A stretch of 64,000 nucleotides of DNA from Syntrophaceae bacterium UBA4810 (lineage in GTDB: Bacteria > Desulfobacterota > Syntrophia > Syntrophales > Smithellaceae). Both the position numbers and the translations under genes were made by a program. Below the pieces are notes generated by a model. That model was given only the letters and a program-made list of their open reading frames with translations. It was not told the DNA's origin and searched no databases. Below are positions 28,299 through 41,024 of this stretch, piece by piece; position 1 is the first letter of the stretch, and each line of letters begins with the position of its first letter. The DNA is taken from NCBI GenBank assembly GCA_002402545.1, contig DHGA01000061.1, positions 1,239-65,238 on the forward strand, read 5' to 3'.

Positions 28299-29570
28299 AT
28301 GTGCGATACATGCGGCATCGGGCCTGAATTCACGGGCTCCGGCATCAGCATTTTCGGCAAGAATTCCGACCGCGAGCCGGATGAAACACAGCTTGTGGTG
28401 TCTGTGCCGTCAAAAAATGACGGCGCGAAAGAAGAACTGCGCTGCACTTATATCAGCATTCCTCAAGTTGAGGCTACTTTCGCCATGGTGCTCTCCAAGC
28501 CTTTCTGGCTGTGGGGCGCGGAAATGGGCGTCAACGAAAAAGGCGTGGTTATCGGCAACGAAGCGCTTTTTACCAAAGTAAAACAAGAAAAATCACCGGG
28601 GCTAATCGGAATGGATTTGCTTAGGCTGGCGCTGGAAAGAGGAGGCGATGCCCGGCAAGCGGCACAAATAATAATAGATCTATTAGAAAAATACGGGCAG
28701 GCCGGAGCCTGCGGCTACCGTGATAAAAAATTCAGCTATATGAATTCCTTTATCATCATGGACCGGAAGGTTATCATCAAACTGGAGACAGCGGGCAGGG
28801 ACTACGTCATGAAGGATGCCGGCACGCATGCCGCGATTTCCAACGGCATCACCATCGCGCGGGATTGGGACTCATCGTCGCTCGCGCCGAATACAGACTT
28901 CAGCAAATTCAGCGACCCGTTGATTACCTATTTTTCTGGCAGCGCTTTCCGTAAGGGCGGAAACGAAACCGCCATCAATCAGGCAAAAGGAAAAATCGAC
29001 GCCGGAGAAGTTTTTGCGATGCTCAGGGCTCATCACGGTGACGCGCCGGGAAAGAGCTTCAATCGCGATGTCTGTATGCACGCCGCCGGCCCGCTCATCA
29101 GAAAATCACAAACCACCGGCTCAATGGTGGTGGAGCTGCACCCGGAGGATAAATTCCGGATCTTTGTAACCGGCGGCTCGGCGCCCTGCCTCACCGCCTT
29201 TAAACCGTTTCTGCCGGCAGCGCCTTTTCCTGATACCGTCATCGGCGCCGGTCATTATTCTGATGATTCATACTGGTGGAGGCATGAGGCCTACCATATC
29301 AATGCCTTTTTGCGTTATGAATCCGTCAGGGATTTGGCGCGGCAATACATAAGGGAAATCGAAGGCAAATATGTCGAGAAATTCCCTCCGCACGCGTGGC
29401 GTGAGACTGATGCCTCTTTGGTCGCCAAATCTCACAGCGCCTTTAAAGAATCGGAAGGGCAGGAAAAAATTATTCTCGGACGAATGAAAACAATGAAAAA
29501 ACAGGCGCCGCGGCCGTCCGCTTTATTCTGGAAGCACATTGCCGGGCGTTGTGGCGTGCCACTTGTATAA
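28299..29570 (+). CDS. Ntn-hydrolase, C69 dipeptidase-like
   Basis: Met-Cys N-terminus (MCDT..) and a GKNSDREPDE block. Confidence 0.5.
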   Translation: MCDTCGIGPEFTGSGISIFGKNSDREPDETQLVVSVPSKNDGAKEELRCTYISIPQVEATFAMVLSKPFWLWGAEMGVNEKGVVIGNEALFTKVKQEKSPGLIGMDLLRLALERGGDARQAAQIIIDLLEKYGQAGACGYRDKKFSYMNSFIIMDRKVIIKLETAGRDYVMKDAGTHAAISNGITIARDWDSSSLAPNTDFSKFSDPLITYFSGSAFRKGGNETAINQAKGKIDAGEVFAMLRAHHGDAPGKSFNRDVCMHAAGPLIRKSQTTGSMVVELHPEDKFRIFVTGGSAPCLTAFKPFLPAAPFPDTVIGAGHYSDDSYWWRHEAYHINAFLRYESVRDLARQYIREIEGKYVEKFPPHAWRETDASLVAKSHSAFKESEGQEKIILGRMKTMKKQAPRPSALFWKHIAGRCGVPLV

Positions 29571-29619
29571 TAGACAAAGCGGCAGAACTGTTCACTGGCT
29601 TGCGTTAACCAATTCATTA

Positions 29620-29648
29620 TTGACTTATAGAATTATCTTTTCTATATA
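29620..29648 (+). promoter_or_regulatory. promoter at the left edge of the RiPP-like cluster (TTGACT-17-TATATA)
   Basis: Consensus-like boxes 65 nt upstream of the nucleotidyltransferase start. Confidence 0.5.
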
Positions 29649-29712
29649 AGGTTGGTGACAGCCTGATATTTTTTTAACGGCCTTATTATTAATTCCCCAT
29701 CTAAGGATTTTG

Positions 29713-30906
29713 ATGCGGCAGTCCAACTCAAATATAAAAATTTTATCTCTGTTTTCTCTTTTATATTCAGGCGGCAATTTTAAAAGCAACGCGTCGGCTC
29801 TGTCCGTCATTGATTGGCCGGAAATGACCACTTTTATTATGGAAAAAGGTTTGGCTGGGCATTTCTACAGCATTCTCTATCAAAATCCAACCGCCGCCGC
29901 ACTCATTCCTGCAGATACAATGGAAAGATTGAAAACCGCCGCTCGACGCGTCGCCGCTCACAATGTTTTTTACGAAACCCAATGCGCGGCAATACTCAAA
30001 GATTTGTCCGCAGCGGGAATAGAAAGCATTTTGCTTAAAGGCTTTTCCTATATGCGGGATATTTATGGCGACACTTCTTCCCGCAGCATGAGCGATATTG
30101 ATCTGCTTGTTCGCCCGGCCGACCGGATTAGAGCGCACGAATACCTGATAGATAACGGATTTTCTCTTTGCGTAATCCCTTCTTTCCGGGGCAGCCGGGA
30201 GGATTTCCTGCGCCTGACCGATATTATCGGCGAAACGCATTACATGAAACAAACCGGCGCGCTCACCGCGAGCGTCGACCTGCACTGGAAAATGCGCGCG
30301 GAATTTCCCATGAATAATTACATGGATTTGGATAAATTTCCCTGGTGGAAAAACGCCACGACTGTAGACATCGGCGATGCCCAGGCAAGAAGACTTGTGC
30401 CGGAGATGCAGTTCATTCATCTGGCGCTGCATTTCGCCATTCGTCATCACTATTGGGGGTTGAGATGGTTTGTGGAATTATTTCTTTTTCTGAAAACGTT
30501 CGGAGAAAAGCTGGATTGGGATTTCGTTTATCAAACAACTTCATCAAGTGACTGCCGCAAACTGCTGGGAGTCTGCCTGCGCCTTGTTAAAGATTATTTA
30601 GGCGATGCGTGCCCCGCTTCTGCAGAATGGCAAAAATTTCTGCCTGTCCGTTCTCTGTTACCCGGTGAATACAGCTTTTATAAAAGCTACCTTGCGCGGG
30701 ATAAAAAATCACGGCTGGCCGAATATCTTTGCATGCCGCTCAGCCCCGCGACGATTACCGGCCGGCTGAAGATGATTTATTATTTCCTCTTTGACGCGCA
30801 GGGAGTCGTTTTCTGGCAGGGAGCAGAAACCAGAGTGCCAAAAATGTTGCATCCTTTCTATGTTTTGTATATTGTTGCCCGGCAGTTACTGCGCCGTAGA
30901 AACTGA
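29713..30906 (+). CDS. nucleotidyltransferase family protein (NTP_transf_5-like)
   Basis: GFSYMRDIYGD...SMSDIDLLV NTase motif. The size and context (next to PqqD and an HPrK-like kinase) fit the family seen in lasso and other RiPP loci. Confidence 0.65.
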   Translation: MRQSNSNIKILSLFSLLYSGGNFKSNASALSVIDWPEMTTFIMEKGLAGHFYSILYQNPTAAALIPADTMERLKTAARRVAAHNVFYETQCAAILKDLSAAGIESILLKGFSYMRDIYGDTSSRSMSDIDLLVRPADRIRAHEYLIDNGFSLCVIPSFRGSREDFLRLTDIIGETHYMKQTGALTASVDLHWKMRAEFPMNNYMDLDKFPWWKNATTVDIGDAQARRLVPEMQFIHLALHFAIRHHYWGLRWFVELFLFLKTFGEKLDWDFVYQTTSSSDCRKLLGVCLRLVKDYLGDACPASAEWQKFLPVRSLLPGEYSFYKSYLARDKKSRLAEYLCMPLSPATITGRLKMIYYFLFDAQGVVFWQGAETRVPKMLHPFYVLYIVARQLLRRRN

Positions 30907-30944
30907 TGAAACGCCAATTTGCATAAAATAACGGAGAAATGCAT

Positions 30945-31211
30945 ATGAAAAAAATCCCGAAGAAGAACCCGGATATTATCTGGAAAAATGTAAAAGGAGA
31001 GACCGTGCTTCTCAATCCCCAAAGCGGAAAGTATTACGGCCTCAACAAGGTCGGCTGCGCCTTCTGGGAAAAGGTAGACGGAAAAAAAGCAATGCCGGAG
31101 ATCGCCGACTTATTGCTCAAAGAATTCACCGTGGAAAGAGAAAGGCTTCTGGGGGACTTGGAAGATTTACTTAAAACGCTTACCGAAAACAATATTATAA
31201 CAATAGAATAA
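30945..31211 (+). CDS. PqqD-family RiPP recognition element (lasso B1-like peptide chaperone)
   Basis: About 88 aa with the ...GETVLLNPQSGKYYGLNKVGCAFWEKVDGK...EIADLL..EF.V pattern typical of PqqD. Confidence 0.8.
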   Translation: MKKIPKKNPDIIWKNVKGETVLLNPQSGKYYGLNKVGCAFWEKVDGKKAMPEIADLLLKEFTVERERLLGDLEDLLKTLTENNIITIE

Positions 31212-31221
31212 AGAGGCCGGA

Positions 31222-32214
31222 TTGCAGAAATATTCTTATATTTTTGATGCTTTTGGAAGTTCGTTTGGAGTATCGGGCAACTGGCCTGACTGCCTCAAAG
31301 ATATCAGCGCCTGGTATGCCTTGCCGCAAAGCAAAATATCGGGCAAGCCGGATTTATCTTTGCAAATCTCCGGCGCCAAAATAGAAGAAATTGACCGGCG
31401 GCTTCCCCTGCCCTCTGAGAATCATAAACTCAAAAAAGGCGTCATGCTGGCCAATGAAAATTTTGATTATACATCTTACGCGGACAACGAAAGGCAATGG
31501 ATTGATTACGCCCGTGTCGGGCGAATTATGATTGATTACGTCAATGGTTCTGCGATAGCGCTTATGTGCGGCAGCGCCATGCTCCCTACCTACCAGAAAA
31601 TTCTTTTTCCCGACTATGCTTTGGACAAACTTCTTACCTCCCGGGGAATTTTTTCGATGCATGCCTCCTGCGCTGTGGTTAACGGCAAAGGCATAGCCTT
31701 TACAGGCAATTCCGGCGCGGGTAAGTCCACGGCGGCTTTTATGCTGATGCAGAAAGGAATGCAGATACTTACCGATGAAAAATTGTATGTTTTTAAAAAA
31801 GATTGCTACCGGGCGGGGGCGGTTTCGGATATTATTAAGGTAAACGATGATTCCATGTCGAGATTTTTTGCCGGGCGGGATTCTTACAGCGAATATGACG
31901 TTATCGCCGGGGAACATTATTTAAAAATCAGCGCCGCGACAAAATCCGCCGGGCAAAATCAGGTGCCGCTCAAAGCGCTGTGCCTGCTGGAGCAGACAGG
32001 CTTTCCCCAAACGCAGATAACCTCCGTCAATCCCACCAAGCTTGTCGGCGGCCTCTTCCCCGTTACCATAACAGGGACAAGCCGCAGATATAAAGCAGCC
32101 AAGTTTGATTTTATTATGGAAATGCTGGAGAACATCGAGTGCCGTCTGGTTAAATTCGGCACTAATATGGATAGTTTTACGGAAAAAATTAAGGAACTGG
32201 CAGATACATTATAG
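31222..32214 (+). CDS. HPr-kinase-related (HprK-like) P-loop kinase
   Basis: GIAFTGNSGAGKST P-loop in HPrK C-domain context. TTG start after AGAGG. Confidence 0.65.
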   Translation: MQKYSYIFDAFGSSFGVSGNWPDCLKDISAWYALPQSKISGKPDLSLQISGAKIEEIDRRLPLPSENHKLKKGVMLANENFDYTSYADNERQWIDYARVGRIMIDYVNGSAIALMCGSAMLPTYQKILFPDYALDKLLTSRGIFSMHASCAVVNGKGIAFTGNSGAGKSTAAFMLMQKGMQILTDEKLYVFKKDCYRAGAVSDIIKVNDDSMSRFFAGRDSYSEYDVIAGEHYLKISAATKSAGQNQVPLKALCLLEQTGFPQTQITSVNPTKLVGGLFPVTITGTSRRYKAAKFDFIMEMLENIECRLVKFGTNMDSFTEKIKELADTL

Positions 32215-32226
32215 TTATCTGATAAT

Positions 32227-32286
32227 AAAAAAGGCGTTCAATGACCGGATTTAACCCGATTCACTGAGCACCCGATAAAAACAAAA
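32227..32286 (-). terminator. conserved hairpin terminator module, copy 1 (after precursor A1)
   Basis: GGCGTTCAATGA...TCACTGAGCACC flanked by A/T runs. The loop CCGGATTTAACCC is conserved with copies 2 and 3. Confidence 0.55.
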
Positions 32287-32295
32287 TCTGATATT

Positions 32296-32382
32296 TTAAG
32301 GGTCTGGTTGTTTGCTCGAAGTGGTTATATCCGAAAGATCTTCATAAACGACAAGTTCCGGTTTTTCGTAGTCTTGCTTCAT
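32296..32382 (-). CDS. RiPP precursor peptide A1: MKQDYEKPELVVYEDLSDITTSSKQPDP
   Basis: My own codon-by-codon translation. AAGGGGGA RBS. The leader is shared with six paralogs. Confidence 0.8.
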   Translation of the reverse strand: MKQDYEKPELVVYEDLSDITTSSKQPDP

Positions 32383-32642
32383 AGTTGTTCCCCCTTTGAT
32401 TGAATATTAAATTGTTTTTATGCATACGACAAAAATCCATCACAAGCAAGTTTGTTTTTTTTTGCAATGATTCTAGTGAAACAATTCTTCAGAAGCAATA
32501 TATTATAAGCTCAGGTATTTGTGCCTTTTTATGACTTAATAATACTGCTCCATTGGCCAATTTCCCTTGACATATAAGACAGTCTTATCCTACGATTTTG
32601 CAACCAAATATAATATATTATCACAATTAGAGGTGGCTTTGC

Positions 32643-34190
32643 ATGAAGGAATTGGACCTTGCCTGGTACATGATACGACTGCACACGCGGCTGCGGCGTT
32701 TTGATCATAAGCGAAATAGTCAAGATAAGATAAATATTTTTCACCATGCCAGGAGGGTCACGAGTAAGTTGAGTTCCGTCCTGATTCGCTTTTCTGTAGC
32801 CGAGGCAAAAACCCCGTGGTTTACTGATGACGAAGCTAAAGCGATTCATCAAGAGAGAGAAAAACTATTAGAGAAGCTTTCCGGTCGGACAAACCTCAGT
32901 GCCAACGGGACTAAACTCCATCTCGGTAAGCTGTCTCGGGGTTGCACCATTTGCATGGATGGATACTGGGGTTGTAACTATATCAACGGGCGGTGCCACA
33001 GAAACTGCTTTTACTGCATGCGAGATCATTCAATGCAAACGGAACCAAATTCCAAAAGTGATGGTTTTGATTTTGGCACTTCCGAAGAACACATAGAATT
33101 CCTCAAAACTTTTCAGATCAGGGGTGTCGGATTTTCCGGGGGAGAACCCTTGTTGGTTCTCGATCGGCTCTTGGAGCACATTGTTGCGATACGTAAGGAA
33201 CTCGGTTCCACAATTTATCTCTGGATGTATACCAATGGCGATTTGGTAAACCGCGAGACGCTTAGTGCGCTCAGAGATGCCGGGCTAAACGAGATCCGTT
33301 TCGATTTGAGCGCCCGAGGTTATGACTTGTCACCTCTTGTGCTCGCCAAGGAATATATCCCCACCGTAGCTGTTGAAATACCGGCCATCCCTGAGGATTT
33401 TCTCTTGGTGAAAAAGTTGCTGGTCGATATGCAGGCTGTTGGCGTCAATCACCTCAATCTTCATCAATTAATGGCTGGGCAGCGTAATTGGAAGGCTTTG
33501 TGCCGTCGGCACTATCACTTTTCGTTTCAAAGTACGCCTGCTGTTCATGAGTCAGAGCTTTGCGCCTTGCGTTTGATTCTGTACGCTTGTGAGCAAAAAC
33601 TGAACCTGCCAATCAATTACTGTTCCGTAGCCTACAAATTTCGTTTTCAGGGACGAGCATTCAGAATGCGGCGCGCCTTGGTTCTTCGGGAAGGGTTTCA
33701 GGAAATAACGGAAGCGGGCTATATCCGATCACTGTGTATATCTGATTCCGCCGATAAGATTGAAGCGCTAGCTAGGCGGTTGAAGGGTGATCATGTGGAA
33801 CCCATATTGTGGAAAGAGGAATGCGATCATGGTGAAATCTCCTTGCACAGCAACCTGATGTCCTATGTTGATTGGTCTTCTGCGACGTTGGCTATCAAAT
33901 ACTATCAGGCTGGTGTTGCGCTCAAGAATAAATCCGCTCGATTCGAACCTGGAAATCTGAAAAGGGATAGGCGTACCGTCAAGACGGTTACCGGCTTGGG
34001 TTGTTCAGCCTTCGATTGTTGGCATAGGCTTTATGTTCAGAAGGAAGCCGCAACAGATGTTTTCAGCCCCACCCATCTTAAACACCTCGGTGTTTCGGAA
34101 GAGAAAAATCGGTTTAAGAATATAATCGGTCAACTGCTTTCTGTGGCCACATACGAACAATTGGAGGCTGGCTTGCCTGATGTGACTTGA
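32643..34190 (+). CDS. radical SAM protein (515 aa, large C-terminal extension)
   Basis: GRCHRNCFYC CX3CX2C motif preceded by an extra Cys cluster (CTICMDGYWGC). GFSGGEPLL glycine-rich SAM motif. Confidence 0.75.
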   Translation: MKELDLAWYMIRLHTRLRRFDHKRNSQDKINIFHHARRVTSKLSSVLIRFSVAEAKTPWFTDDEAKAIHQEREKLLEKLSGRTNLSANGTKLHLGKLSRGCTICMDGYWGCNYINGRCHRNCFYCMRDHSMQTEPNSKSDGFDFGTSEEHIEFLKTFQIRGVGFSGGEPLLVLDRLLEHIVAIRKELGSTIYLWMYTNGDLVNRETLSALRDAGLNEIRFDLSARGYDLSPLVLAKEYIPTVAVEIPAIPEDFLLVKKLLVDMQAVGVNHLNLHQLMAGQRNWKALCRRHYHFSFQSTPAVHESELCALRLILYACEQKLNLPINYCSVAYKFRFQGRAFRMRRALVLREGFQEITEAGYIRSLCISDSADKIEALARRLKGDHVEPILWKEECDHGEISLHSNLMSYVDWSSATLAIKYYQAGVALKNKSARFEPGNLKRDRRTVKTVTGLGCSAFDCWHRLYVQKEAATDVFSPTHLKHLGVSEEKNRFKNIIGQLLSVATYEQLEAGLPDVT

Positions 34191-34320
34191 TTAATTAACA
34201 AGCTGCCGACACTGGTTACCCAAAATAGTTGTGCCGTCCAGGGACTTTAATAGCGGATAAGATTGTTTTTATTATTGAGATGCTGGCAAATGCTGTCAGA
34301 AACATTATAAATGCTTGATA

Positions 34321-34376
34321 AACAAAGGCGCTCAATACCGGGATTTAACCCTATTCATTGATCGCCAGATAAAAAA
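34321..34376 (-). terminator. conserved hairpin terminator module, copy 2 (after precursor A2)
   Basis: GGCGCTCAAT-loop(ACCGGGATTTAACCC..)-ATTGATCGCC, with a T-run on the minus strand. Confidence 0.6.
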
Positions 34377-34387
34377 GATACTTACTG

Positions 34388-34477
34388 TTATACAGGACTG
34401 GTACTCAAGCCACCTGTCGTTACATCCGAAAGGTCTTCGTAAACAATCAGTGCGGGTGTTTCATAATCTTGTTTCAA
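34388..34477 (-). CDS. RiPP precursor peptide A2 (TTG start): MKQDYETPALIVYEDLSDVTTGGLSTSPV
   Basis: In-frame TAA two codons upstream of the TTG, and GGAGGG 6 nt upstream. Confidence 0.7.
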   Translation of the reverse strand: MKQDYETPALIVYEDLSDVTTGGLSTSPV

Positions 34478-34538
34478 AATTTACCCTCCTCAGATAATTA
34501 AAATACCTTTTAAGGTTTAAGGTTAAAAATATCCTGTT

Positions 34539-34634
34539 TTAATCTACTACTGTTTTGCTTATTGGCCCGCCTGTCGTGACGTCAGAAAGATCTTCATAGA
34601 CAACAAGTTCGGGTTTTTCGTATTCTTTTTTCAT
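34539..34634 (-). CDS. RiPP precursor peptide A3: MKKEYEKPELVVYEDLSDVTTGGPISKTVVD
   Basis: GGGAGG RBS. My own translation. Confidence 0.8.
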   Translation of the reverse strand: MKKEYEKPELVVYEDLSDVTTGGPISKTVVD

Positions 34635-34760
34635 GGTTACGCCTCCCTGGATTTCTTACTATAATGAATTGCTGAATAAATACAACAAAAACAAACAGTA
34701 GTCAATTTATTTTAGGGTTATAAAAACATAAAAATGCAAAATGGTGGAGTAGACAATATA

Positions 34761-34789
34761 TTGACACAAAAGTTCAATGTTCTTATACT
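34761..34789 (+). promoter_or_regulatory. promoter (TTGACA-17-TATACT) upstream of the formyltransferase gene
   Basis: Consensus boxes 52 nt upstream of the ATG at 34841. Confidence 0.55.
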
Positions 34790-34840
34790 TTCTGACCGCA
34801 TACTCGGCGGTAAACAAAAGAGGTTAAGGGGCATTTTTTT

Positions 34841-35779
34841 ATGAGAGTATTATTTATCGGCCAAAACGGGTCTTTCAGCACATATCCTCTGCGCAAAATC
34901 GCGGCGGAGCACGAAATCGTGGGCATTGTGGAATCCGTACCGCAAAAGTACACGCCAATGAAAGCAAAGCTGCTAAAATTTTTAACCCGCTACAATAAAA
35001 AGCAGACGCTCAGATCATTGGCCCGACAAATGTCCGTGCCCTACTTTTTGCTGCAGAGAGGCAAAAAAAATGGCCTCGCTTCTTTCGTTAAAACACTTAA
35101 CCCGGATATTATCTGCGTGGCTTCTATGTCGGAGCTTTTGCCCAAAGAAGTTTTTTCCATGCCTCCATTCGGGACAATAAATTTCCACCCCGCGTTGCTT
35201 CCCCAATACCGCGGCCCTCGGTCGTTTTTCTGGCAGTATTATTTTATGGAACCGGAAACAGGCGTAACCATTCATTACATAGACGAAGGCGAAGATACGG
35301 GTGATATCATCAGGCAAAAAAGCATTCCCATATTTTTGGGCATGAAAAGCGGGGAACTAGTAAATGAAATAACCATTATTGGAGCGGCACTCATGGCAGA
35401 GGCGCTTGACGATATAAGCAAAGGGACTGTCCAGAGCGTACCGCAAAAGCATCTGCCCTGCCCTTTTCGAGCAAGGCGCGAGAAAAAGGGCGAAGAGCTT
35501 ATTGACTGGAACTGGCCGATTGAACGCATCTGGCATTTTCTACGCGGAACGGCGTATCAGGATAAATCGTTCAAATACAGGTTGCCCGGCTCTTCCTGGA
35601 TTGTGAGGGATTTCAAAAAAGGCGAAACTGACGGCACAGCGGGGATGCTGAAAATCAGCTTACAGGGTTTCTACATGACCCACAGGGAAGGAAAAATCTT
35701 TGTTACCCTGAAATGGTCGCTAATAGATTTCGCCCGCGATTTATATCACTTTGCTTTAAAATTAACGGGACAAGATTGA
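34841..35779 (+). CDS. formyltransferase (Fmt/PurN-fold, with Fmt-like C-terminal domain)
   Basis: NFHPALLPQYRG (catalytic His block) and IHYIDEGEDTGDII (Asp block). Confidence 0.75.
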   Translation: MRVLFIGQNGSFSTYPLRKIAAEHEIVGIVESVPQKYTPMKAKLLKFLTRYNKKQTLRSLARQMSVPYFLLQRGKKNGLASFVKTLNPDIICVASMSELLPKEVFSMPPFGTINFHPALLPQYRGPRSFFWQYYFMEPETGVTIHYIDEGEDTGDIIRQKSIPIFLGMKSGELVNEITIIGAALMAEALDDISKGTVQSVPQKHLPCPFRARREKKGEELIDWNWPIERIWHFLRGTAYQDKSFKYRLPGSSWIVRDFKKGETDGTAGMLKISLQGFYMTHREGKIFVTLKWSLIDFARDLYHFALKLTGQD

Positions 35780-35803
35780 ACAAAAAAAGATTAGTGCTCG
35801 AAA

Positions 35804-35860
35804 TAAAAAAGGCGCTCAATGCCGGGATTTAACCCCGTATATATTGAGCGCCCGATAAAA
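35804..35860 (-). terminator. conserved hairpin terminator module, copy 3 (after precursor A4)
   Basis: Perfect 10-bp stem GGCGCTCAAT/ATTGAGCGCC, 22-nt loop, and T6 on the minus strand. Confidence 0.7.
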
Positions 35861-35872
35861 AAGATGCTTACT

Positions 35873-35959
35873 CTATCTTACGTCGCTAGGAACTCCAGTT
35901 GTTATCTCTGAAAGATCTTCATACACAACAAGTTCGGGTTTTTCATATTCTTCTTTCAT
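35873..35959 (-). CDS. RiPP precursor peptide A4: MKEEYEKPELVVYEDLSEITTGVPSDVR
   Basis: AAAGGA RBS. My own translation. Confidence 0.8.
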   Translation of the reverse strand: MKEEYEKPELVVYEDLSEITTGVPSDVR

Positions 35960-35991
35960 GTTTTTTTCCTTTCTGTGTGTGCTTTTCTACG

Positions 35992-36087
35992 CTAAAATGC
36001 TGTGCTTGGTTCTTGTGCGAATCCCTGCGTTATAACCAAAAGGTCTTCGTAAACTACAAGTTCAGGTTTCTCGTATTCTTTTTTCAT
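35992..36087 (-). CDS. RiPP precursor peptide A5: MKKEYEKPELVVYEDLLVITQGFAQEPSTAF
   Basis: GGGAGG RBS. The 5' UTR is nearly identical to that of A3. Confidence 0.75.
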   Translation of the reverse strand: MKKEYEKPELVVYEDLLVITQGFAQEPSTAF

Positions 36088-36177
36088 GTTTACGCCTCCC
36101 TGGATTTCTTACAATTGCGCAGTTATCTTCGCAAGAGCTTCATCAATAACCCTTTTCGGCGGGAAGCACTCGATCAA

Positions 36178-36261
36178 TTAAGCAATAGTCGTGCTTCCTG
36201 TTGTTATCTCTGAAAGATCTTCATAAACAATCAGTTCAGGTTTTTCATAGTCTTGTTTCAT
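36178..36261 (-). CDS. RiPP precursor peptide A6: MKQDYEKPELIVYEDLSEITTGSTTIA
   Basis: My own translation. Weak AAGAGA RBS. Confidence 0.75.
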   Translation of the reverse strand: MKQDYEKPELIVYEDLSEITTGSTTIA

Positions 36262-36317
36262 CGTTTTTCTCTTTTTATTAGCGGCTTGATTTTACGACGT
36301 TATCAACTACGGCGCTA

Positions 36318-36410
36318 TCACATGGTGTCGCCCGATACGAATATTCCCATTGTCACATCAGAAAGGTCTTCATAAACAATCAGTGCGGGTTTTTCATATT
36401 CTTGTTTCAT
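36318..36410 (-). CDS. RiPP precursor peptide A7: MKQEYEKPALIVYEDLSDVTMGIFVSGDTM
   Basis: AGGAGG RBS. My own translation. Confidence 0.8.
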   Translation of the reverse strand: MKQEYEKPALIVYEDLSDVTMGIFVSGDTM

Positions 36411-36498
36411 GGTTTTTCCTCCTGTTATGGAATCAGTCATGAAATGTTTACAATAAAGATTCACGTTGGTCAACTTTTTTTGTTATCGAATTATCACG

Positions 36499-36527
36499 TT
36501 GACACACAAGTGGAACTTTCTTATATT
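36499..36527 (+). promoter_or_regulatory. promoter (TTGACA-17-TATATT) upstream of the DUF362 gene
   Basis: Consensus boxes. This implies the annotated ORF start at 36466 is upstream of the transcription start. Confidence 0.55.
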
Positions 36528-36579
36528 TCAACTCCAAATAAGTTACCTGTTGTCAAAAAAGTCTGCCCGGGAGGATAAG

Positions 36580-37506
36580 TTGCTATTCCGCCGTTTATTG
36601 CGCTATTTGAACCGGCCTGCCGTCTTGCGCCGTATAGTGGTGAGCGGCCAGGCAAAGCCGCGCATCGCAAAAAACCATCCGGCCAAAGACCAGGTTTTTG
36701 TCTATCTATACAATAACGAAGATGCAGGCCTGAAAGATTTGTGTAGCTCTATTGCGCCAGCTTGGGAAAAAACCGAGCGGATTTTAATAAAGATTAACCT
36801 CAATACGGCGGATGCTTATCCTGCCTCGACCGACCCGGAATTTCTTGTCGCCCTGCTTGACGCGTTTCGCGATAGAGGTTTTAAAAATTTGCTGGTGGGT
36901 GATTGTTCTTCCATGGGCGCGCTACCCACGCGCAAAGTGGCGTATCAGGCAGGTCTTACCAACGTGCTGCGCGGCCGGGCACGGCTTATTTACTTTGATA
37001 ACGAACCGTGGGTGCAAGTTAGCCTCAACGGAAAATATCTTTCTTCAGTTGTTGTCCCCAAAGAAGTATTTGAGGCAGACCGAATAATTCATCTGGCAAA
37101 TATGAAATCACACGCGCTGGCGAATTTCAGCTTCGGCATGAAATTGGGCGTGGGATACATGCATCCCTTGGAGCGCTGTGACTTGCATGATGAATTCTTA
37201 CAGGAAAAAATCGCGGAACTGGCTCTCGCTATTCAGCCGGATCTGACGATAATTGACGGGCGACAGGCGTTTGTTTCCGGCGGGCCGGTTAAAGGCCGGG
37301 TGGAGAAGGCAAACGTTTTGCTTTGGGGAGAAAATCCCCTGGCGGTTGATGTGGAAACATATCGCAGATTGTATGCGTTAAAGAAAAAATTTGCATGTTT
37401 GGAAGGATTCACGCAAGATCCTTTTGCCATGCGCCAGTTGAAACACGCGCGCCAGATTGGTGTCGGAAACAAAGATTGGCAGGAATACAACATTGTGGAA
37501 ATATAA
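36580..37506 (+). CDS. DUF362 domain protein
   Basis: ILIKINLNTA...STDPEFLVALLDAFRDRG...LVGDCSS pattern of DUF362. TTG at 36580 after GGGAGGA. Confidence 0.65.
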   Translation: MLFRRLLRYLNRPAVLRRIVVSGQAKPRIAKNHPAKDQVFVYLYNNEDAGLKDLCSSIAPAWEKTERILIKINLNTADAYPASTDPEFLVALLDAFRDRGFKNLLVGDCSSMGALPTRKVAYQAGLTNVLRGRARLIYFDNEPWVQVSLNGKYLSSVVVPKEVFEADRIIHLANMKSHALANFSFGMKLGVGYMHPLERCDLHDEFLQEKIAELALAIQPDLTIIDGRQAFVSGGPVKGRVEKANVLLWGENPLAVDVETYRRLYALKKKFACLEGFTQDPFAMRQLKHARQIGVGNKDWQEYNIVEI

Positions 37507-37921
37507 GGGCTATGAACTGCCGCAAGATTTACCTCTGATTATCGGAGCGCTTCTGCGGCTGCTTTATTTTGAGTTGATACTTCACCGAAGGCCGCTACCG
37601 GATATTTTAGCGGAAATTAGCGGGATGCCTTCCGTTTTATCTGCGCCTGCGGCGGAAGTAGCCGTTACCTTGGATAAATTATGGCGCGCCTGCGGCTTCT
37701 GGATGGCAAGGGTGCTTAAAAATCCCCGTCCCTGTCTGCGCCGCTCGCTGGTTTTGTATCGCTGGTGTAAAAAGCATGGCGTGGAGAGCAAAGTGGTTGT
37801 TGGCGTGGATAAAGACGGGGACATCCTCAAGGGACATGCCTGGCTTTACGTGCACGGGCAGGTGTACAGAGAAGACCCGGAGTTACTGGCCAGAGATTAT
37901 ACCATAATGCTGGAAGGCTAA
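37457..37921 (+). CDS. lasso-peptide B2-type leader peptidase (transglutaminase-core Cys protease)
   Basis: PCLRRSLVLYRW....G......VGV......KGHAWLYVHGQVY carries the Cys and His blocks of McjB-C/B2 proteins. The start is uncertain (TTG at 37457 or 37493). Confidence 0.75.
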   Translation: MVSETKIGRNTTLWKYKGYELPQDLPLIIGALLRLLYFELILHRRPLPDILAEISGMPSVLSAPAAEVAVTLDKLWRACGFWMARVLKNPRPCLRRSLVLYRWCKKHGVESKVVVGVDKDGDILKGHAWLYVHGQVYREDPELLARDYTIMLEG

Positions 37922-37943
37922 TCGCAAGGTAAAAGGTTTTTTT

Positions 37944-39356
37944 ATGCGCTTTTTATTTATCACGCACGGCATAGAACCAAACTTGTTTCAGGGCCCGCAC
38001 TGGCTGCCTTTGGGCTTTGCCTATATCGGCGCGTTGCTGAAACAGCATAGGCATGCTGTACAAGTTTTTGATCGTTACGCTGCGATAGATCGTTTAGGGC
38101 AAGACGCGGAAAAAATCGATCAGGCGATGTTGAATGCGATAACAATTTTTGCGCCGGATGTTGTCGGCCTGTCCACTGTTTCACCAATGATTCATGATGC
38201 AGTTCATTGCGCCAAAATAATCCGGGATGTTTTCAATGGGACAATGCTGGCCGGCGGGCACCACGCGACTGCCCTGCCTCGCCTCACTATGGAAAAGATC
38301 GCCGAGCTGGACGGCGTGGGAATTGGGGAAGGAGAAGAATCCCTGCTGGCTTTAGCCCAAGGCAAAAAACCAGATGAAATCAAAGGACTTTATTGGCGAA
38401 AGAATTCCGGCAAAGAAAGTTTCGGCCGTGTGGAGCAACTTGATTTGCTGCCTTTTCCCGATTTTTCATTGTTTGACACGGATTTTTACACACGACGTAC
38501 TTCGTCCATAATTCGCGGTTTTCATCTTTCGACACTTTCCATGCTTACATCACGAGGCTGTTCTCAGCGCTGTTCTTTCTGTACCGAATCACTGACCTAT
38601 GGCGGCGGCGTGCGTTTCCATAGCATAGATTACATTACGGAACTGGTTAAACGCGCCCTCAAACAGTATCCGCATGTTGAAGGCATCTATTTTCACGACA
38701 ACGACTTTATGGTTGACCCGGCCCGCGTGGAAAATATTTGTCGCCGCTTTATCGAGACGGGACTTGCCAAGCGCTTTGCCTGGGCGATTCAGGCGCGCGC
38801 AGACAGGTTAAAGCCTGCCCTGCTGCGGCTGATGCGCAAGGCGGGATGCATCAAGATGGAAATCGGCGTGGAAGCTGCCTTGCAAAAAAACCTGGATTCG
38901 GTGCGAAAAGGCACCACGGTAAACGTCAACGAAAAAGCGCTAAGGCTATGCCGTGATGCCGGAATCAGCGTGCACGCGTATATTCTGACAAAAACACAAA
39001 ACGAGTTACTCGCAGATTTGGATTTTACGCTCAATTGGCTCAAGAAAAATCGGCCGGATACATTCAGCTTGCATCCTTTATTGCGTCACCCGGGGTCTGT
39101 ATTATACAAGGAAAAAGGAAATAGGTTTTTTGAATCTCACGACTGGACAAGGGAAAACGTTCTTCGCTTTTATAATGAAGATGTTTTTTCTAAGATTAGC
39201 CCACAGGAAAGAAAAAAATGGGCGCTATCACGTTACAATCCTTTTTACAAAAGGCATCACCGCATAATCCGCTACAAGGTGAACCCTCTTCGCAAATGGC
39301 CGCAAATGCTGTATGAGGCGCTGGCGCGCAGGCTGAAAAAATTGTTTGCCAAATAA
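37944..39356 (+). CDS. B12-binding-domain radical SAM protein (class B-like)
   Basis: N-terminal Rossmann-like B12-binding region. SRGCSQRCSFCTE CX3CX2C motif. Confidence 0.75.
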   Translation: MRFLFITHGIEPNLFQGPHWLPLGFAYIGALLKQHRHAVQVFDRYAAIDRLGQDAEKIDQAMLNAITIFAPDVVGLSTVSPMIHDAVHCAKIIRDVFNGTMLAGGHHATALPRLTMEKIAELDGVGIGEGEESLLALAQGKKPDEIKGLYWRKNSGKESFGRVEQLDLLPFPDFSLFDTDFYTRRTSSIIRGFHLSTLSMLTSRGCSQRCSFCTESLTYGGGVRFHSIDYITELVKRALKQYPHVEGIYFHDNDFMVDPARVENICRRFIETGLAKRFAWAIQARADRLKPALLRLMRKAGCIKMEIGVEAALQKNLDSVRKGTTVNVNEKALRLCRDAGISVHAYILTKTQNELLADLDFTLNWLKKNRPDTFSLHPLLRHPGSVLYKEKGNRFFESHDWTRENVLRFYNEDVFSKISPQERKKWALSRYNPFYKRHHRIIRYKVNPLRKWPQMLYEALARRLKKLFAK

Positions 39357-39384
39357 TTTTATTTGCGCTCTAACTAGTTTACTT

Positions 39385-40305
39385 ATGGCCGCAAAAAAGA
39401 AAAATGACTTTTATCTTGCCGACTCAATAAACAATCTGATTGCCAGAGAAATACAGTCGGGCGATTTCACGTGCGACCTTCCATCGCACAAAGGAGACGC
39501 CGAGTGCCGCAATTTGTTTCTCAATATCTACGATGAAGCAATGATCCGCCGGAAGTTCGAGGAGATCGGTTTCGCCGCGCACCTGAAAAATAGAGGTTTT
39601 ACAAAGCTGCAAATAGAAATTGACCGGGGCATGAATTCAGTTTCGAGCCTGAGATTATATAACGGGCCTATTTCGCCGGATAACCGCCTGTTGGACACGC
39701 GTTTCAGCGAAACTATTTTTACTCCTTTCAGGGAGTTTTGTGAACTTGCCGGCGATAAAAAAGACCCCTGCAAGTTTCAGATGATTGTAATCGAGTGGCT
39801 CGAGGCGCTTGACCCAAAAGCCCACTTCACTGCTGAAAAACCCCAGCTTCCCGGCCAGAAAAAACCCGGACTGGGGGCGCTTGTCTATATCAAGAAATTT
39901 TTGGGTGTCGTGGGAAAAGATGTTTCCCGCGACGGGTTTCTGAAAATCGCCGACCATATTCACACAGCTCTTATGTATTCAGATATCTTCATGTTCGTAA
40001 ACCCAGCCCGCCAGGGATATCTCAGCGCGCTGCGGCGTGATATGGAAAAGTACAGTTTAAACGATATCGCCTGGGGTTTTGTGACTGAAACAATCTGTGA
40101 CCGCGAAACCGGCGCGCCGGAAAAATATATTCCTTCCGAGCAGGTTTTGCCGCTTTCCGACAGATTAATGGAGCATTTTACTTCACGCAAATACGCGGAC
40201 GATGTGCGCGCAGTTTATGAAAACAAGGGGTTTCGGTTCGACATTGACCGCATGCTTTTGCTGAAAAAAGAATGGCTTGGCAAAAACAGGCCGGAAGACG
40301 CTTAA
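39385..40305 (+). CDS. hypothetical protein (last gene in the same orientation as the cluster)
   Basis: 306-aa ORF. Family not recognised. Confidence 0.5.
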   Translation: MAAKKKNDFYLADSINNLIAREIQSGDFTCDLPSHKGDAECRNLFLNIYDEAMIRRKFEEIGFAAHLKNRGFTKLQIEIDRGMNSVSSLRLYNGPISPDNRLLDTRFSETIFTPFREFCELAGDKKDPCKFQMIVIEWLEALDPKAHFTAEKPQLPGQKKPGLGALVYIKKFLGVVGKDVSRDGFLKIADHIHTALMYSDIFMFVNPARQGYLSALRRDMEKYSLNDIAWGFVTETICDRETGAPEKYIPSEQVLPLSDRLMEHFTSRKYADDVRAVYENKGFRFDIDRMLLLKKEWLGKNRPEDA

Positions 40306-40364
40306 ACAGCCTGCTATTCAGCAAAAAACTTTTGTCGCCTATCACGCCACAAGAACTCAGGTAA

Positions 40365-41024
40365 TCATTTCGACCGCACAGAGAGCAGTATTCCAAAACT
40401 TAACAGAAAAAGACCTGTAAAGTAGACGGGAATGGTAAACAAAGGCGAGGGGTGTCCGTTAAAAACAAACTTGGCCAATGCCAGCAAAGCATCGGAAAGC
40501 ATGAAAATAAATGCCCCGATAGCGGCGAGTGGACGAACATCAGCCACGATGGCAAGCATTGTCATAAGGGTAATAACAACAAGGTATAACATAACCGGCA
40601 CAAGCAGCGAACCCAGTTTGGGAACAAGCACAAAAGCCATGGCCAGCGAAAAAAGCAACACGGGCATTATCCATATACGGCGGGGACTTTTTGGAACACG
40701 CCGCATCCAAAATAAAATAAGAAAGCCCGCATGACCCAAAAGAAACGCGGCAAGACCGGGAACAAACAGGCGAACCCGATCTATGTCGAGAATCACGTCT
40801 CCGGCGCCACAAAACAGCGCGCCGGTTAACATCGCGATTTTCTGCGGAAGCGCCAACTGGCCGGTGACAAGTATTGCGACAGCCAGAATCAGCGCCGGAA
40901 TCACCTTGATAACAAAGCTGGCCGTAAAGTCGGGTATAAATATTTTGACCAGCATGAAACTTACGGCGGCCGCCACATAGACCACCATGAAGGGTATATA
41001 GGAAAATCCTTTTTCGCTTTTCAT
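40365..41024 (-). CDS. YhhN/lysoplasmalogenase-family membrane protein
   Basis: Multi-TM with GDVILD and FMLSDALLA motifs. ATG at 41024 is preferred because the TTG at 41060 abuts the upstream terminator. Confidence 0.65.
   Translation of the reverse strand: MKSEKGFSYIPFMVVYVAAAVSFMLVKIFIPDFTASFVIKVIPALILAVAILVTGQLALPQKIAMLTGALFCGAGDVILDIDRVRLFVPGLAAFLLGHAGFLILFWMRRVPKSPRRIWIMPVLLFSLAMAFVLVPKLGSLLVPVMLYLVVITLMTMLAIVADVRPLAAIGAFIFMLSDALLALAKFVFNGHPSPLFTIPVYFTGLFLLSFGILLSVRSK

Follow-up and report, generated by a model that had tools for sequence, protein, structure and literature searches.

Organization of the locus

We analysed a stretch of 64,000 nucleotides (nt) of contig DHGA01000061.1 from Syntrophaceae bacterium UBA4810, hereafter the window, in which seven mini-genes, A1 to A7, lie on the minus strand within a plus-strand cluster of enzyme genes. 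The mini-genes are predicted to encode precursors of RiPPs (peptides synthesized on ribosomes and modified post-translationally) that carry a lasso-type leader without giving rise to lasso peptides. The cluster begins with a PF14907-family gene, a PqqD-type gene and an HPr-kinase-like gene, followed by a gap that holds A1, a gene for a radical S-adenosylmethionine (rSAM) enzyme, a gap with A3 and A2, a formyltransferase gene, a gap with A7 to A4, and finally the genes for a DUF362 protein, a B2-type protease and a B12-binding rSAM enzyme (B12-rSAM); ordinary metabolic genes flank it on either side (Table 1). The original prediction, made from the sequence of the window, had listed seven minus-strand open reading frames (ORFs) of 27-31 codons, and when we re-translated them at the same coordinates we obtained exactly the peptides it had given. 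Its statement that a Shine-Dalgarno sequence precedes each ORF stood for six of the seven, where a clear GGAGG-type sequence is found 6-9 nt upstream, but not for A6, which has a weak AAGAGA. The ATG of A7 is nested within a longer ORF of 51 amino acids (aa) that starts with TTG and runs to position 36473.

The mini-genes had been described as antisense. However, they occupy intergenic gaps and overlap none of the plus-strand genes, and the next plus-strand genes have strong promoters of their own. They would form three minus-strand transcription units (A1; A3-A2; and A7-A6-A5-A4), each of which ends with a copy of one ~47-nt module, in which a U-run follows a long GC-rich hairpin. A candidate TTGAC-type -35 box precedes the first start codon of each unit by 45-60 nt. 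Since the units have terminators and candidate promoters of their own while the plus-strand genes are promoted separately, the mini-genes are better regarded as intergenic genes in divergent or convergent orientation.

Table 1. Genes and predicted regulatory features of the cluster, in positions of the window. RRE, RiPP recognition element; S-K, Ser-Lys; SD, Shine-Dalgarno sequence.
Feature	Position	Strand	Remarks
PF14907 nucleotidyltransferase-family protein	29710..30906	+	E 8e-45
PqqD-type RRE, lasso B1-like, predicted leader-binding	30939..31211	+	PF05402, E 2e-17
HPr-kinase-like P-loop kinase	31222..32214	+	H147, K168, D185 invariant; E186
Intrinsic terminator, A1 unit	32227..32273	-	Hairpin and U-run, fold z -3.85
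A1 precursor	32296..32382	-	Leader MKQDYEKPELVVYEDLSDITT, core SSKQPDP
Candidate sigma-70 promoter, A1	32421..32449	-	TTGCTT-17-TATGCA; weak, by eye; absent from promoter scan output
Sigma-70-like promoter, 10/12	32567..32596	+	Ahead of the 515-aa rSAM gene
rSAM enzyme, 515 aa, accessory	32643..34190	+	Only in the window's closest relatives
Intrinsic terminator, A3-A2 unit	34320..34367	-	Hairpin and U-run, fold z -1.93
A2 precursor, TTG start	34388..34477	-	Leader end ...DVTT, core GGLSTSPV; strong SD GAGGAGG
A3 precursor	34539..34634	-	Leader end ...DVTT, core GGPISKTVVD (S-K core)
Candidate promoter, A3-A2	34677..34705	-	TTGACT-17-TATTTA; -35 box kept in relative L017 amid diverged DNA
Sigma-70-like promoter, 11/12	34761..34789	+	Ahead of the formyltransferase gene
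Fmt-like formyltransferase, accessory	34841..35779	+	Tracks S-K cores; 7 loci
Intrinsic terminator, A7-A6-A5-A4 unit	35805..35853	-	Hairpin and U-run, fold z -4.29
A4 precursor	35873..35959	-	Leader end ...EITT, core GVPSDVR
A5 precursor	35992..36087	-	Leader end ...VITQ, core GFAQEPSTAF
A6 precursor	36178..36261	-	Leader end ...EITT, core GSTTIA; weak SD
A7 precursor	36318..36410	-	Leader end ...DVTM, core GIFVSGDTM
Candidate promoter, A7-A4	36445..36473	-	TTGACC-17-TAAACA; block ~98% conserved with L017
Sigma-70-like promoter, 11/12	36499..36527	+	Ahead of DUF362-B2-B12-rSAM; back to back with the A7 candidate promoter
DUF362 protein, LarA fold	~36580..37506	+	ORF opens at 36466; start taken from 308-aa protein P0015
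Lasso B2-type transglutaminase-like cysteine protease	37457..37921	+	PF13471; NF033537 47.6 bits, above cut-off 33
B12-binding rSAM enzyme, probable C-methyltransferase	37944..39356	+	Co-occurs in 14 loci and 7/7 distant loci

Evidence for coding

A degenerate DNA pattern of the leader matched exactly seven sites in the window, with none expected from 100 shuffles. Residues 1-21 had been called almost invariant, which holds at the protein level, and the corresponding 63-nt blocks are 73-89% identical as DNA. The variable sites of the seven blocks fall 5/5/15 on codon positions 1/2/3. Furthermore, of the six reading frames only the minus-strand frame of the peptides stays open in every copy; the remaining five are either interrupted by stops or marked almost exclusively by non-synonymous differences. 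The 5/5/15 pattern, the near-invariant peptides and the single open frame thus point to purifying selection on the protein rather than on the DNA or RNA. A scan of positions 29500-40500 against Rfam at E<=1 returned zero RNA families.

Because our first pattern for finding homologues was codon-aware, we also scanned for the 63-nt block with an ordinary nucleotide profile, and found 115 leader copies in related loci. The original prediction had proposed looking for frameshifts and stops in these blocks in relatives; none of the 115 copies is disrupted, and one is cut by a contig end. When entropy was summed by codon position over 65 unique leader DNAs, it came to 7.4/3.5/21.5 bits for positions 1/2/3. 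As for the view that the mini-genes are unannotated, it applies to the TTG-start A2, which has never been called, whereas the exact sequences of the six others are already in public protein collections, unnamed or as 'hypothetical protein'. The samples from which public copies of the window peptides come include oil-sands tailings metagenomes.

The 5' untranslated regions (5'UTRs) of A3 and A5 (minus strand, 34635-34660 and 36088-36113) are identical at 24 of 25 positions (GTAAGAAATCCAGGGAGGCGTAA), despite the fact that the two leaders are only 76% identical as DNA, near the minimum over all pairs; gene conversion or a conserved translational element may be the cause.

Related loci and a conserved six-gene cassette

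With a codon-degenerate leader pattern we retrieved 14 loci in species-representative genomes and 40 more in metagenomes. These 54 loci and the window together gave 73 unique complete peptides. The 14 genome loci belong to Smithella spp., one HGW-Deltaproteobacteria metagenome-assembled genome (MAG) and a further MAG with the label Syntrophomonadaceae. On all contigs of sufficient length, the peptides are accompanied by the same six genes, namely those for the PF14907 protein (which co-occurs in 11 loci and in all seven of the distant loci described below), PqqD, the HPr-kinase-like enzyme, DUF362, B2 and B12-rSAM. Whether the leader always co-occurs with the PqqD/B2 pair had been proposed as a check, and the pair is indeed present in all loci that extend far enough. 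In the Smithella loci the peptides are always encoded on the strand opposite to the enzymes.

A search with DUF362 led to seven diverged contexts (41-52% identity), all of which carry the same six genes; they comprise Desulfofarcimen acetoxidans DSM 771, for which a complete genome is available, and six metagenomic lineages. D. acetoxidans DSM 771 has one precursor, MENKEYEKPEVIVYGNLKNVTGGENPSTIL, and its cluster (CP001720.1, about 1,664,637-1,672,261, complement) includes an ABC transporter besides the six genes. Examples of precursors from the distant loci are MENKEYEKPEVIVYGNLKNVTG followed by the core GENPSTIL, ...YQKPVLTKQKKLKDITA followed by GDSNPPE, and ...WNKPVLVELSVNETY followed by GLPSAQ. 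Since the distant loci share both the genes and the rules of the precursors, the system is not specific to Smithella and is widespread among anaerobes.

The closest relative of the window is the metagenome contig Ga0351945_1029 (loci L017 and L024), whose enzyme genes are 86-97% identical to those of the window as DNA, and L024 encodes an identical copy of the A1 peptide. Between the formyltransferase and DUF362 genes, the window has four precursor copies and this relative two. When A7 was aligned with its counterpart in L017, the promoter, 5'UTR and leader were about 98% identical and the alignment collapsed at the second codon of the core; a segment that is coding sequence in the relative lies between genes in the window. 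Given the conserved flank and the collapsed core, divergence is thus focused on the core and proceeds partly through insertions and deletions.

Several side observations bear on how the cassettes are assembled. In L024, the region from the kinase gene to the A1 orthologue holds an ABC exporter, two extra precursors (cores ASAGWA and GVGFPSDFE) and duplicated 3' fragments of the kinase gene, none of which occurs in the window. Such duplicated kinase fragments flank cassettes in relatives, while the sole repeated element of this kind in the window is the terminator module; the cassettes seem to have spread by segmental duplication. One distant version of the cassette has a Radical_SAM-PF14907 fusion of 654 aa (L065:14178-16142, plus strand), and another has an added rSAM-SPASM enzyme (L064:14623-15624, minus strand) beside a Cys-containing core of 14 residues. 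The system is therefore modular.

A leader of the lasso type

The peptides share an invariant M1, Y5, E6, P8, L10 and Y13 across the 73 unique sequences. The original prediction had recognised the lasso leader motif in Tyr5, Pro8, Leu10 and Thr20, and the homologues bear this out, the first three residues being invariant and T20 being present in 71 of the 73. In the two exceptions T20 is replaced by Ile or Val, and position 21 is free. Ile at the Thr(-2) position is a known lasso variant (PMC10368454). All seven window peptides match the NCBIfam model NF033528 (lasso peptide precursor) over positions 1-20, with E 6e-5 to 1.5e-3, and five of them also match NF033521 (lasso leader), weakly. Over the whole peptide, the NF033528 scores of 18-23 bits fall short of the threshold (33 bits), the cores having no match in the model. 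Homology, the co-occurrence with B1 and B2, and the coding pattern therefore agree with the earlier reading of the mini-genes as putative RiPP precursors with a lasso-type leader. The locus would also be recognised as a RiPP locus on general grounds, with its conserved leader, variable core and adjoining RRE and tailoring enzymes.

Cores built around one Ser

The cores had been said to diverge completely. This is not quite so, for every core retains at least one Ser. Indeed, Ser is present in all 73 unique cores and in all 15 cores of the distant loci, and none of 20,000 pooled shuffles of the core residues reproduced such universality, while Cys occurs in none of the 73. The cores measure 4-22 residues (median 8, and many only 4-6), for full peptides of 25-43 residues. 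The first core position is Gly in 46 of the 73 and otherwise Q, L, I, A, S, V, F, N or Y. Fifty-eight cores have just one Ser, which lies 2-7 residues from the predicted cleavage site, usually with V, P, I or A before it and G, M, A or K after it; most commonly 2-4 residues follow, and only one of the 58 cores ends in Ser.

The composition of the cores covaries with two accessory enzymes. A glutaminyl cyclase gene (PF05096, E 5e-72) was found in six loci (L009:2936-3706, minus strand; L003, L012, L025, L037 and L039). All five of these that have a complete peptide have a core starting with Gln22 (QVSAPV, QQPSKIMG or QLSKGSG), and no main cluster without the gene has one. The original prediction had placed the split between leader and core at residues 21 and 22, and the association speaks for this site, since cleavage there would expose an N-terminal Gln. 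It further implies that Gln22 cores would receive an N-terminal pyroglutamate cap. Likewise, cores with an S-K pair occur in seven of the seven main clusters with a formyltransferase and in none of the eight without (Fisher p = 1.6e-4), the loci with this enzyme being the window (cores A1 and A3), L009, L012, L016, L017, L037, L039 and L050. In the only apparent exception the formyltransferase is truncated at the contig end. This pattern suggests that the formyltransferase may act on or beside the Lys of the S-K pair.

The cores lack the geometry of lasso peptides. Asp or Glu is present at core positions 7-9 in 17 of the 73. When we counted as lasso-compatible a core with G, A, S or C at position 1, Asp or Glu anywhere from position 7 to 9 and five or more tail residues, only one of the 73 unique cores and one of the 15 distant cores qualified. 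None of the seven window cores could thread; A7 alone has an Asp at position 7, and only two residues lie beyond it. The lasso cyclase (PF00733) was found neither among the 30 window ORFs scanned, which leave out some small and medium ORFs of the 64 kb, nor among the recurrent neighbour families of the 54 related loci, nor among the called genes within 10 kb in the seven distant loci. Of two recurrent neighbours of the size of a cyclase (610 and 668 aa), one is an acyl-CoA dehydrogenase and the other a sigma-54 activator. Because no cyclase was found and the cores are incompatible, the peptides, judged by their sequences, are not lasso peptides.

The core enzymes

In an alignment with the L. 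casei HprK/P, the residues H147, K168 and D185 of the kinase are invariant in 13 homologues. Residues C93, H127 and E139 of B2 are invariant as well, and E139 stands at the position expected for the triad acid from McjB-type spacing.

A search of the PDB with the single DUF362 sequence gave no meaningful match. However, the AlphaFold model, built with 26 homologues, has a mean predicted local distance difference test score (pLDDT) of 90.8 and a predicted template modelling score (pTM) of 0.91, and its top 18 fold matches in the PDB are all nickel-pincer-nucleotide racemases or epimerases of the LarA family (E 7e-6 to 9e-4, probability 0.99-1.00). The invariant H178 and K188 align with the H-x10-K motif of the malate racemase Mar2 in a profile match of E 0.23. 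These residues would correspond to the catalytic His and the cofactor-tethering Lys of LarA. In addition to the fold match and the H-x10-K alignment, DUF362 and the LarA domain are placed in one Pfam clan, CL0471, and LarA-type enzymes work on hydroxyl-bearing carbons (PMC11770544). In contrast, the DUF362 protein is smaller (about 308 against 400-450 aa) and its identity to LarA enzymes is 11-18%, while the known LarA substrates are free 2-hydroxy acids, not peptides. Speculatively, DUF362 might perform a hydride-shuttling reaction on a hydroxyl-bearing carbon, either that of the Ser side chain or that of an attached sugar.

A proposed pathway and its alternatives

We hypothesize that the cluster encodes a RiPP pathway that reuses the recognition and removal of a lasso leader without the cyclase, and whose products would be short linear peptides modified at Ser, probably by phosphorylation, and cleaved by B2. 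We consider this proposal likely. The three minus-strand units would be transcribed apart from the plus-strand enzyme genes, each stopping at its own terminator, and the PqqD-type B1 protein would bind the invariant YExPxL...T leader. The obligatory Ser of the core would then be modified on the leader-bearing precursor, most likely through O-phosphorylation by the HPr-kinase-like enzyme, and the PF14907 protein, to whose family we assume PsmN to belong, may decorate the phosphate as PsmN does. By analogy, PadeK and ThcoK, which have a His-Lys-Asp-Asp motif, phosphorylate the conserved Ser of the lasso precursor and not that of the mature lasso, and the nucleotidyltransferase homologue PsmN decorates the phospho-Ser (PMC9266682). 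B12-rSAM, through probable C-methylation, and the LarA-fold DUF362, through probable hydride shuttling, would add further changes, although the scheme is least certain where DUF362 and the rSAM enzymes are concerned. B2 would cut after residue 21, with Thr at -2 and any residue at -1, a site that the covariation supports. Extras specific to certain lineages would follow, the glutaminyl cyclase capping an N-terminal Gln and the formyltransferase working at Ser-Lys, possibly to give N-epsilon-formyl-Lys; in the window, the extra 515-aa rSAM enzyme would add something further. The very short, linear and heavily modified products would form a small library whose sequences diversify fast around a fixed Ser.

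Several points weigh against this proposal. Every one of its chemical steps is drawn from homology or covariation, and both covariations rest on about three independent lineages each, uncorrected for kinship. The Ser of the cores is internal, whereas characterised lasso kinases target a C-terminal Ser, and the fourth catalytic position of the kinase is Glu186 rather than Asp. The best NCBIfam match of PqqD, lasso_PqqD_Bac, scores 52 bits, under the cut-off of 80; B2 has an invariant Glu where, by McjB-type spacing, the Asp of the triad is expected; and the Mar2 match is both weak and the sole PDB sequence match of the DUF362 profile. The minus-strand promoters are weak candidates picked by eye. 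Finally, no exporter was found in the window's cluster, although close relatives carry one.

A bolder form of the proposal, in which the kinase, the PF14907 transferase, B12-rSAM and the LarA-fold enzyme would all direct a class-defining chemistry to the one Ser, with B1 and B2 derived from lasso systems, would make this a new RiPP class of linear peptides only 4-12 residues long; we put it forward tentatively, as a possibility that we would not presently bet on. Less probable, in our opinion, is that the Ser is not phosphorylated at all and is instead the site of rSAM or LarA-type chemistry such as formylglycine formation, epimerisation, C-methylation or a cross-link, with the kinase and the PF14907 protein working on another substrate or acting transiently, for instance by phosphorylation followed by elimination to dehydroalanine. 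It is true that B12-rSAM and DUF362 are conserved as universally as the kinase, that the fold match ties DUF362 to enzymes acting on hydroxyl-bearing carbons (PMC11770544), and that the Ser is internal where known kinase substrates have it C-terminal. Yet no lyase or elimination enzyme was recognised in the cluster, the His, Lys and Asp of the kinase are invariant, and phosphorylation and decoration of Ser constitute the only established role of such a kinase and a PF14907 protein beside a lasso-type leader.

The remaining alternatives fare worse. If the 21-residue N-terminal part were itself the functional product, such as a regulatory or chaperone-titrating peptide with a junk tail, its far stronger conservation and the tail length of 4-22 residues would be accounted for. 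The tail is nonetheless constrained, by the Ser in 73 of 73 and the lack of Cys in all 73, and it covaries with the glutaminyl cyclase (Gln22) and with the formyltransferase (S-K); moreover, homologous lasso leaders are cleaved off and discarded, and a dedicated leader protease is always present, so we find this explanation improbable. Even harder to sustain is the idea that these are genuine lasso precursors served by a cyclase whose gene lies at another place in the genome. Leader, B1, B2, kinase and PF14907 protein each have ties to lasso systems, and D. acetoxidans has Asn-synthetase genes in separate putative lasso clusters (PMC4289311), but the small number of lasso-compatible cores (one in 73 and one in 15, with none of the window's seven able to thread), the frequent Q, L, I, V or F at core position 1, the many cores of 4-6 residues, and the lack of a cyclase in 61 related loci (among recurrent neighbours in 54, within 10 kb in seven) speak against it. 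The last alternative, that the 63-nt blocks are conserved as DNA or RNA (a repeat, a small RNA or a regulatory site) and the ORFs are incidental, draws on the repetition of the blocks in intergenic DNA along with the hairpin module; it is effectively refuted by the concentration of variation on third codon positions, the 115 copies free of frameshifts and stops, the absence of Rfam matches, the stops or almost purely non-synonymous changes in the other five frames, and the conserved start codons and Shine-Dalgarno sequences.

Comparison with known systems

The phosphorylated lasso peptides of the paeninodin and pseudomycoidin type, whose kinases are PadeK, ThcoK and PsmK, are similar in their YxxPxL...T(-2) leader, discrete PqqD-type B1, transglutaminase-like B2, HPr-kinase-like enzyme with the His, Lys and Asp retained, and conserved core Ser, as well as in a PF14907-family protein if PsmN is, as we assume, a member of that family. 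They differ from the present system in that here no cyclase was found, the cores are very short, at 4-12 residues, and non-threading, the Ser is internal, core position 1 is not confined to Gly, Ala, Ser or Cys, and each genome has many paralogous precursors, including some at satellite loci. To our knowledge, a universal partnership with a LarA-fold DUF362 and a B12-rSAM does not occur in lasso clusters.

Prochlorosins and cyanobactins are multi-precursor RiPP libraries. Like them, the present system combines many paralogues, a near-invariant leader, divergent cores and one enzyme set, with the divergence between close strains concentrated in the core; in contrast, its enzymology is unrelated and its cores are much shorter, with one Ser as their sole fixed feature. 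The SynChlorMet and HprK-related systems (TIGR04249, TIGR04248 and TIGR04355), known from bioinformatic definitions in TIGRFAMs/NCBIfam, also unite a PqqD homologue, an HPr-kinase-like protein and rSAM enzymes in anaerobes, and the kinases of several distant loci carry precomputed matches to Pfam PF27840 'ScmC'. However, the scores of the window proteins are far below the cut-offs of those models (ScmC 23.2 against 125, ScmD 30.6 against 100, HprK_rel_B 34 against 200), and we know of no identified precursor, B2, DUF362 or PF14907 protein in those systems.

Our literature search, whose coverage excluded most subscription-journal papers, found no description of the cassette or the peptides, and its query on Smithella and RiPPs returned nothing relevant. 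The enzyme cassette is apparently undescribed. The system would be a RiPP system that uses lasso components but forms no lasso, and there is a fair chance that it would count as a new class once its chemistry is known. Tools for genome mining recognise a lasso cluster when B1, B2 and the cyclase are present together, and they regard lasso-type RREs without these partners as probable false positives. In the RRE-Finder survey, about half of some 8,000 discrete lasso-RRE matches were without peptidase and cyclase, about 300 co-occurred with an rSAM, and the partnerless matches were treated as possible false positives (PMC7470986). Our results indicate that at least some partnerless lasso-RREs belong to a coherent, conserved pathway that is found in more than one phylum and has identifiable precursors. 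A lasso-type leader with Thr at -2, followed by a short core with one Ser, is offered as a rule for mining them, and Desulfofarcimen acetoxidans DSM 771 as a tractable model organism. For DUF362, a large family related to nickel-pincer racemases, the cassette also suggests an initial biochemical role that can be tested. Should the new-class reading be true, DUF362 would be the first case of a LarA-superfamily enzyme that modifies peptides, and the pathway would exemplify a lasso pathway repurposed after the loss of its cyclase, its multi-copy, fast-diversifying cores forming a natural peptide library in syntrophic anaerobes. A potential for peptide natural products is hereby documented in Smithella, a syntrophic alkane degrader.

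Other neighbours of the precursor genes

Directly downstream of B12-rSAM, an ORF of 319 aa (unk319; 39346-40305, plus strand) shares 11 nt with the end of that gene. Neither Pfam nor NCBIfam gives a match for it, and no related locus has a counterpart, so we do not count it as a member of the cluster, its link to which is doubtful. The C45/AAT-like ORF on the other side (28299-29570, plus strand) was likewise rejected, with scores below the cut-offs and no occurrence in related loci. A penicillin-amidase-family protein (41122-43695, minus strand; PF01804, E 3e-211) also flanks the cluster and is not recurrent in relatives. It and the C45/AAT-like ORF are probably unrelated to the cluster.

In relatives, genes for sigma-54 enhancer-binding activators adjoin precursor genes (L002, L006, L011, L028, L036, L038 and L044). 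As these activators stand beside satellite precursors, we searched for -24/-12 elements, but 97 upstream regions yielded no strict match, and sigma-54 control of the precursors was set aside. The commonest neighbour of the satellite precursors is a Cys-rich protein of 364 aa with the segments CLHNCPDE...FFC and CSMDCSERRCRLC, which occurs in 15 loci (L019:1376-2470, plus strand; L004, L006-L008, L014, L027, L037, L039-L041, L045, L046, L049 and L053) and not in the window. This protein (C0unk) has no match in Pfam or NCBIfam; it may be a further maturation enzyme. In some distant loci (the flanks of L061 and L065, and L059:13599-15710), the cassette lies amid genes for Wzy, glycosyltransferases, a MurJ-like flippase, sugar epimerases and an ABC-2/Wzt_C-type exporter. 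With such polysaccharide and cell-surface neighbours, the product could be glycosylated or attached to the cell surface.

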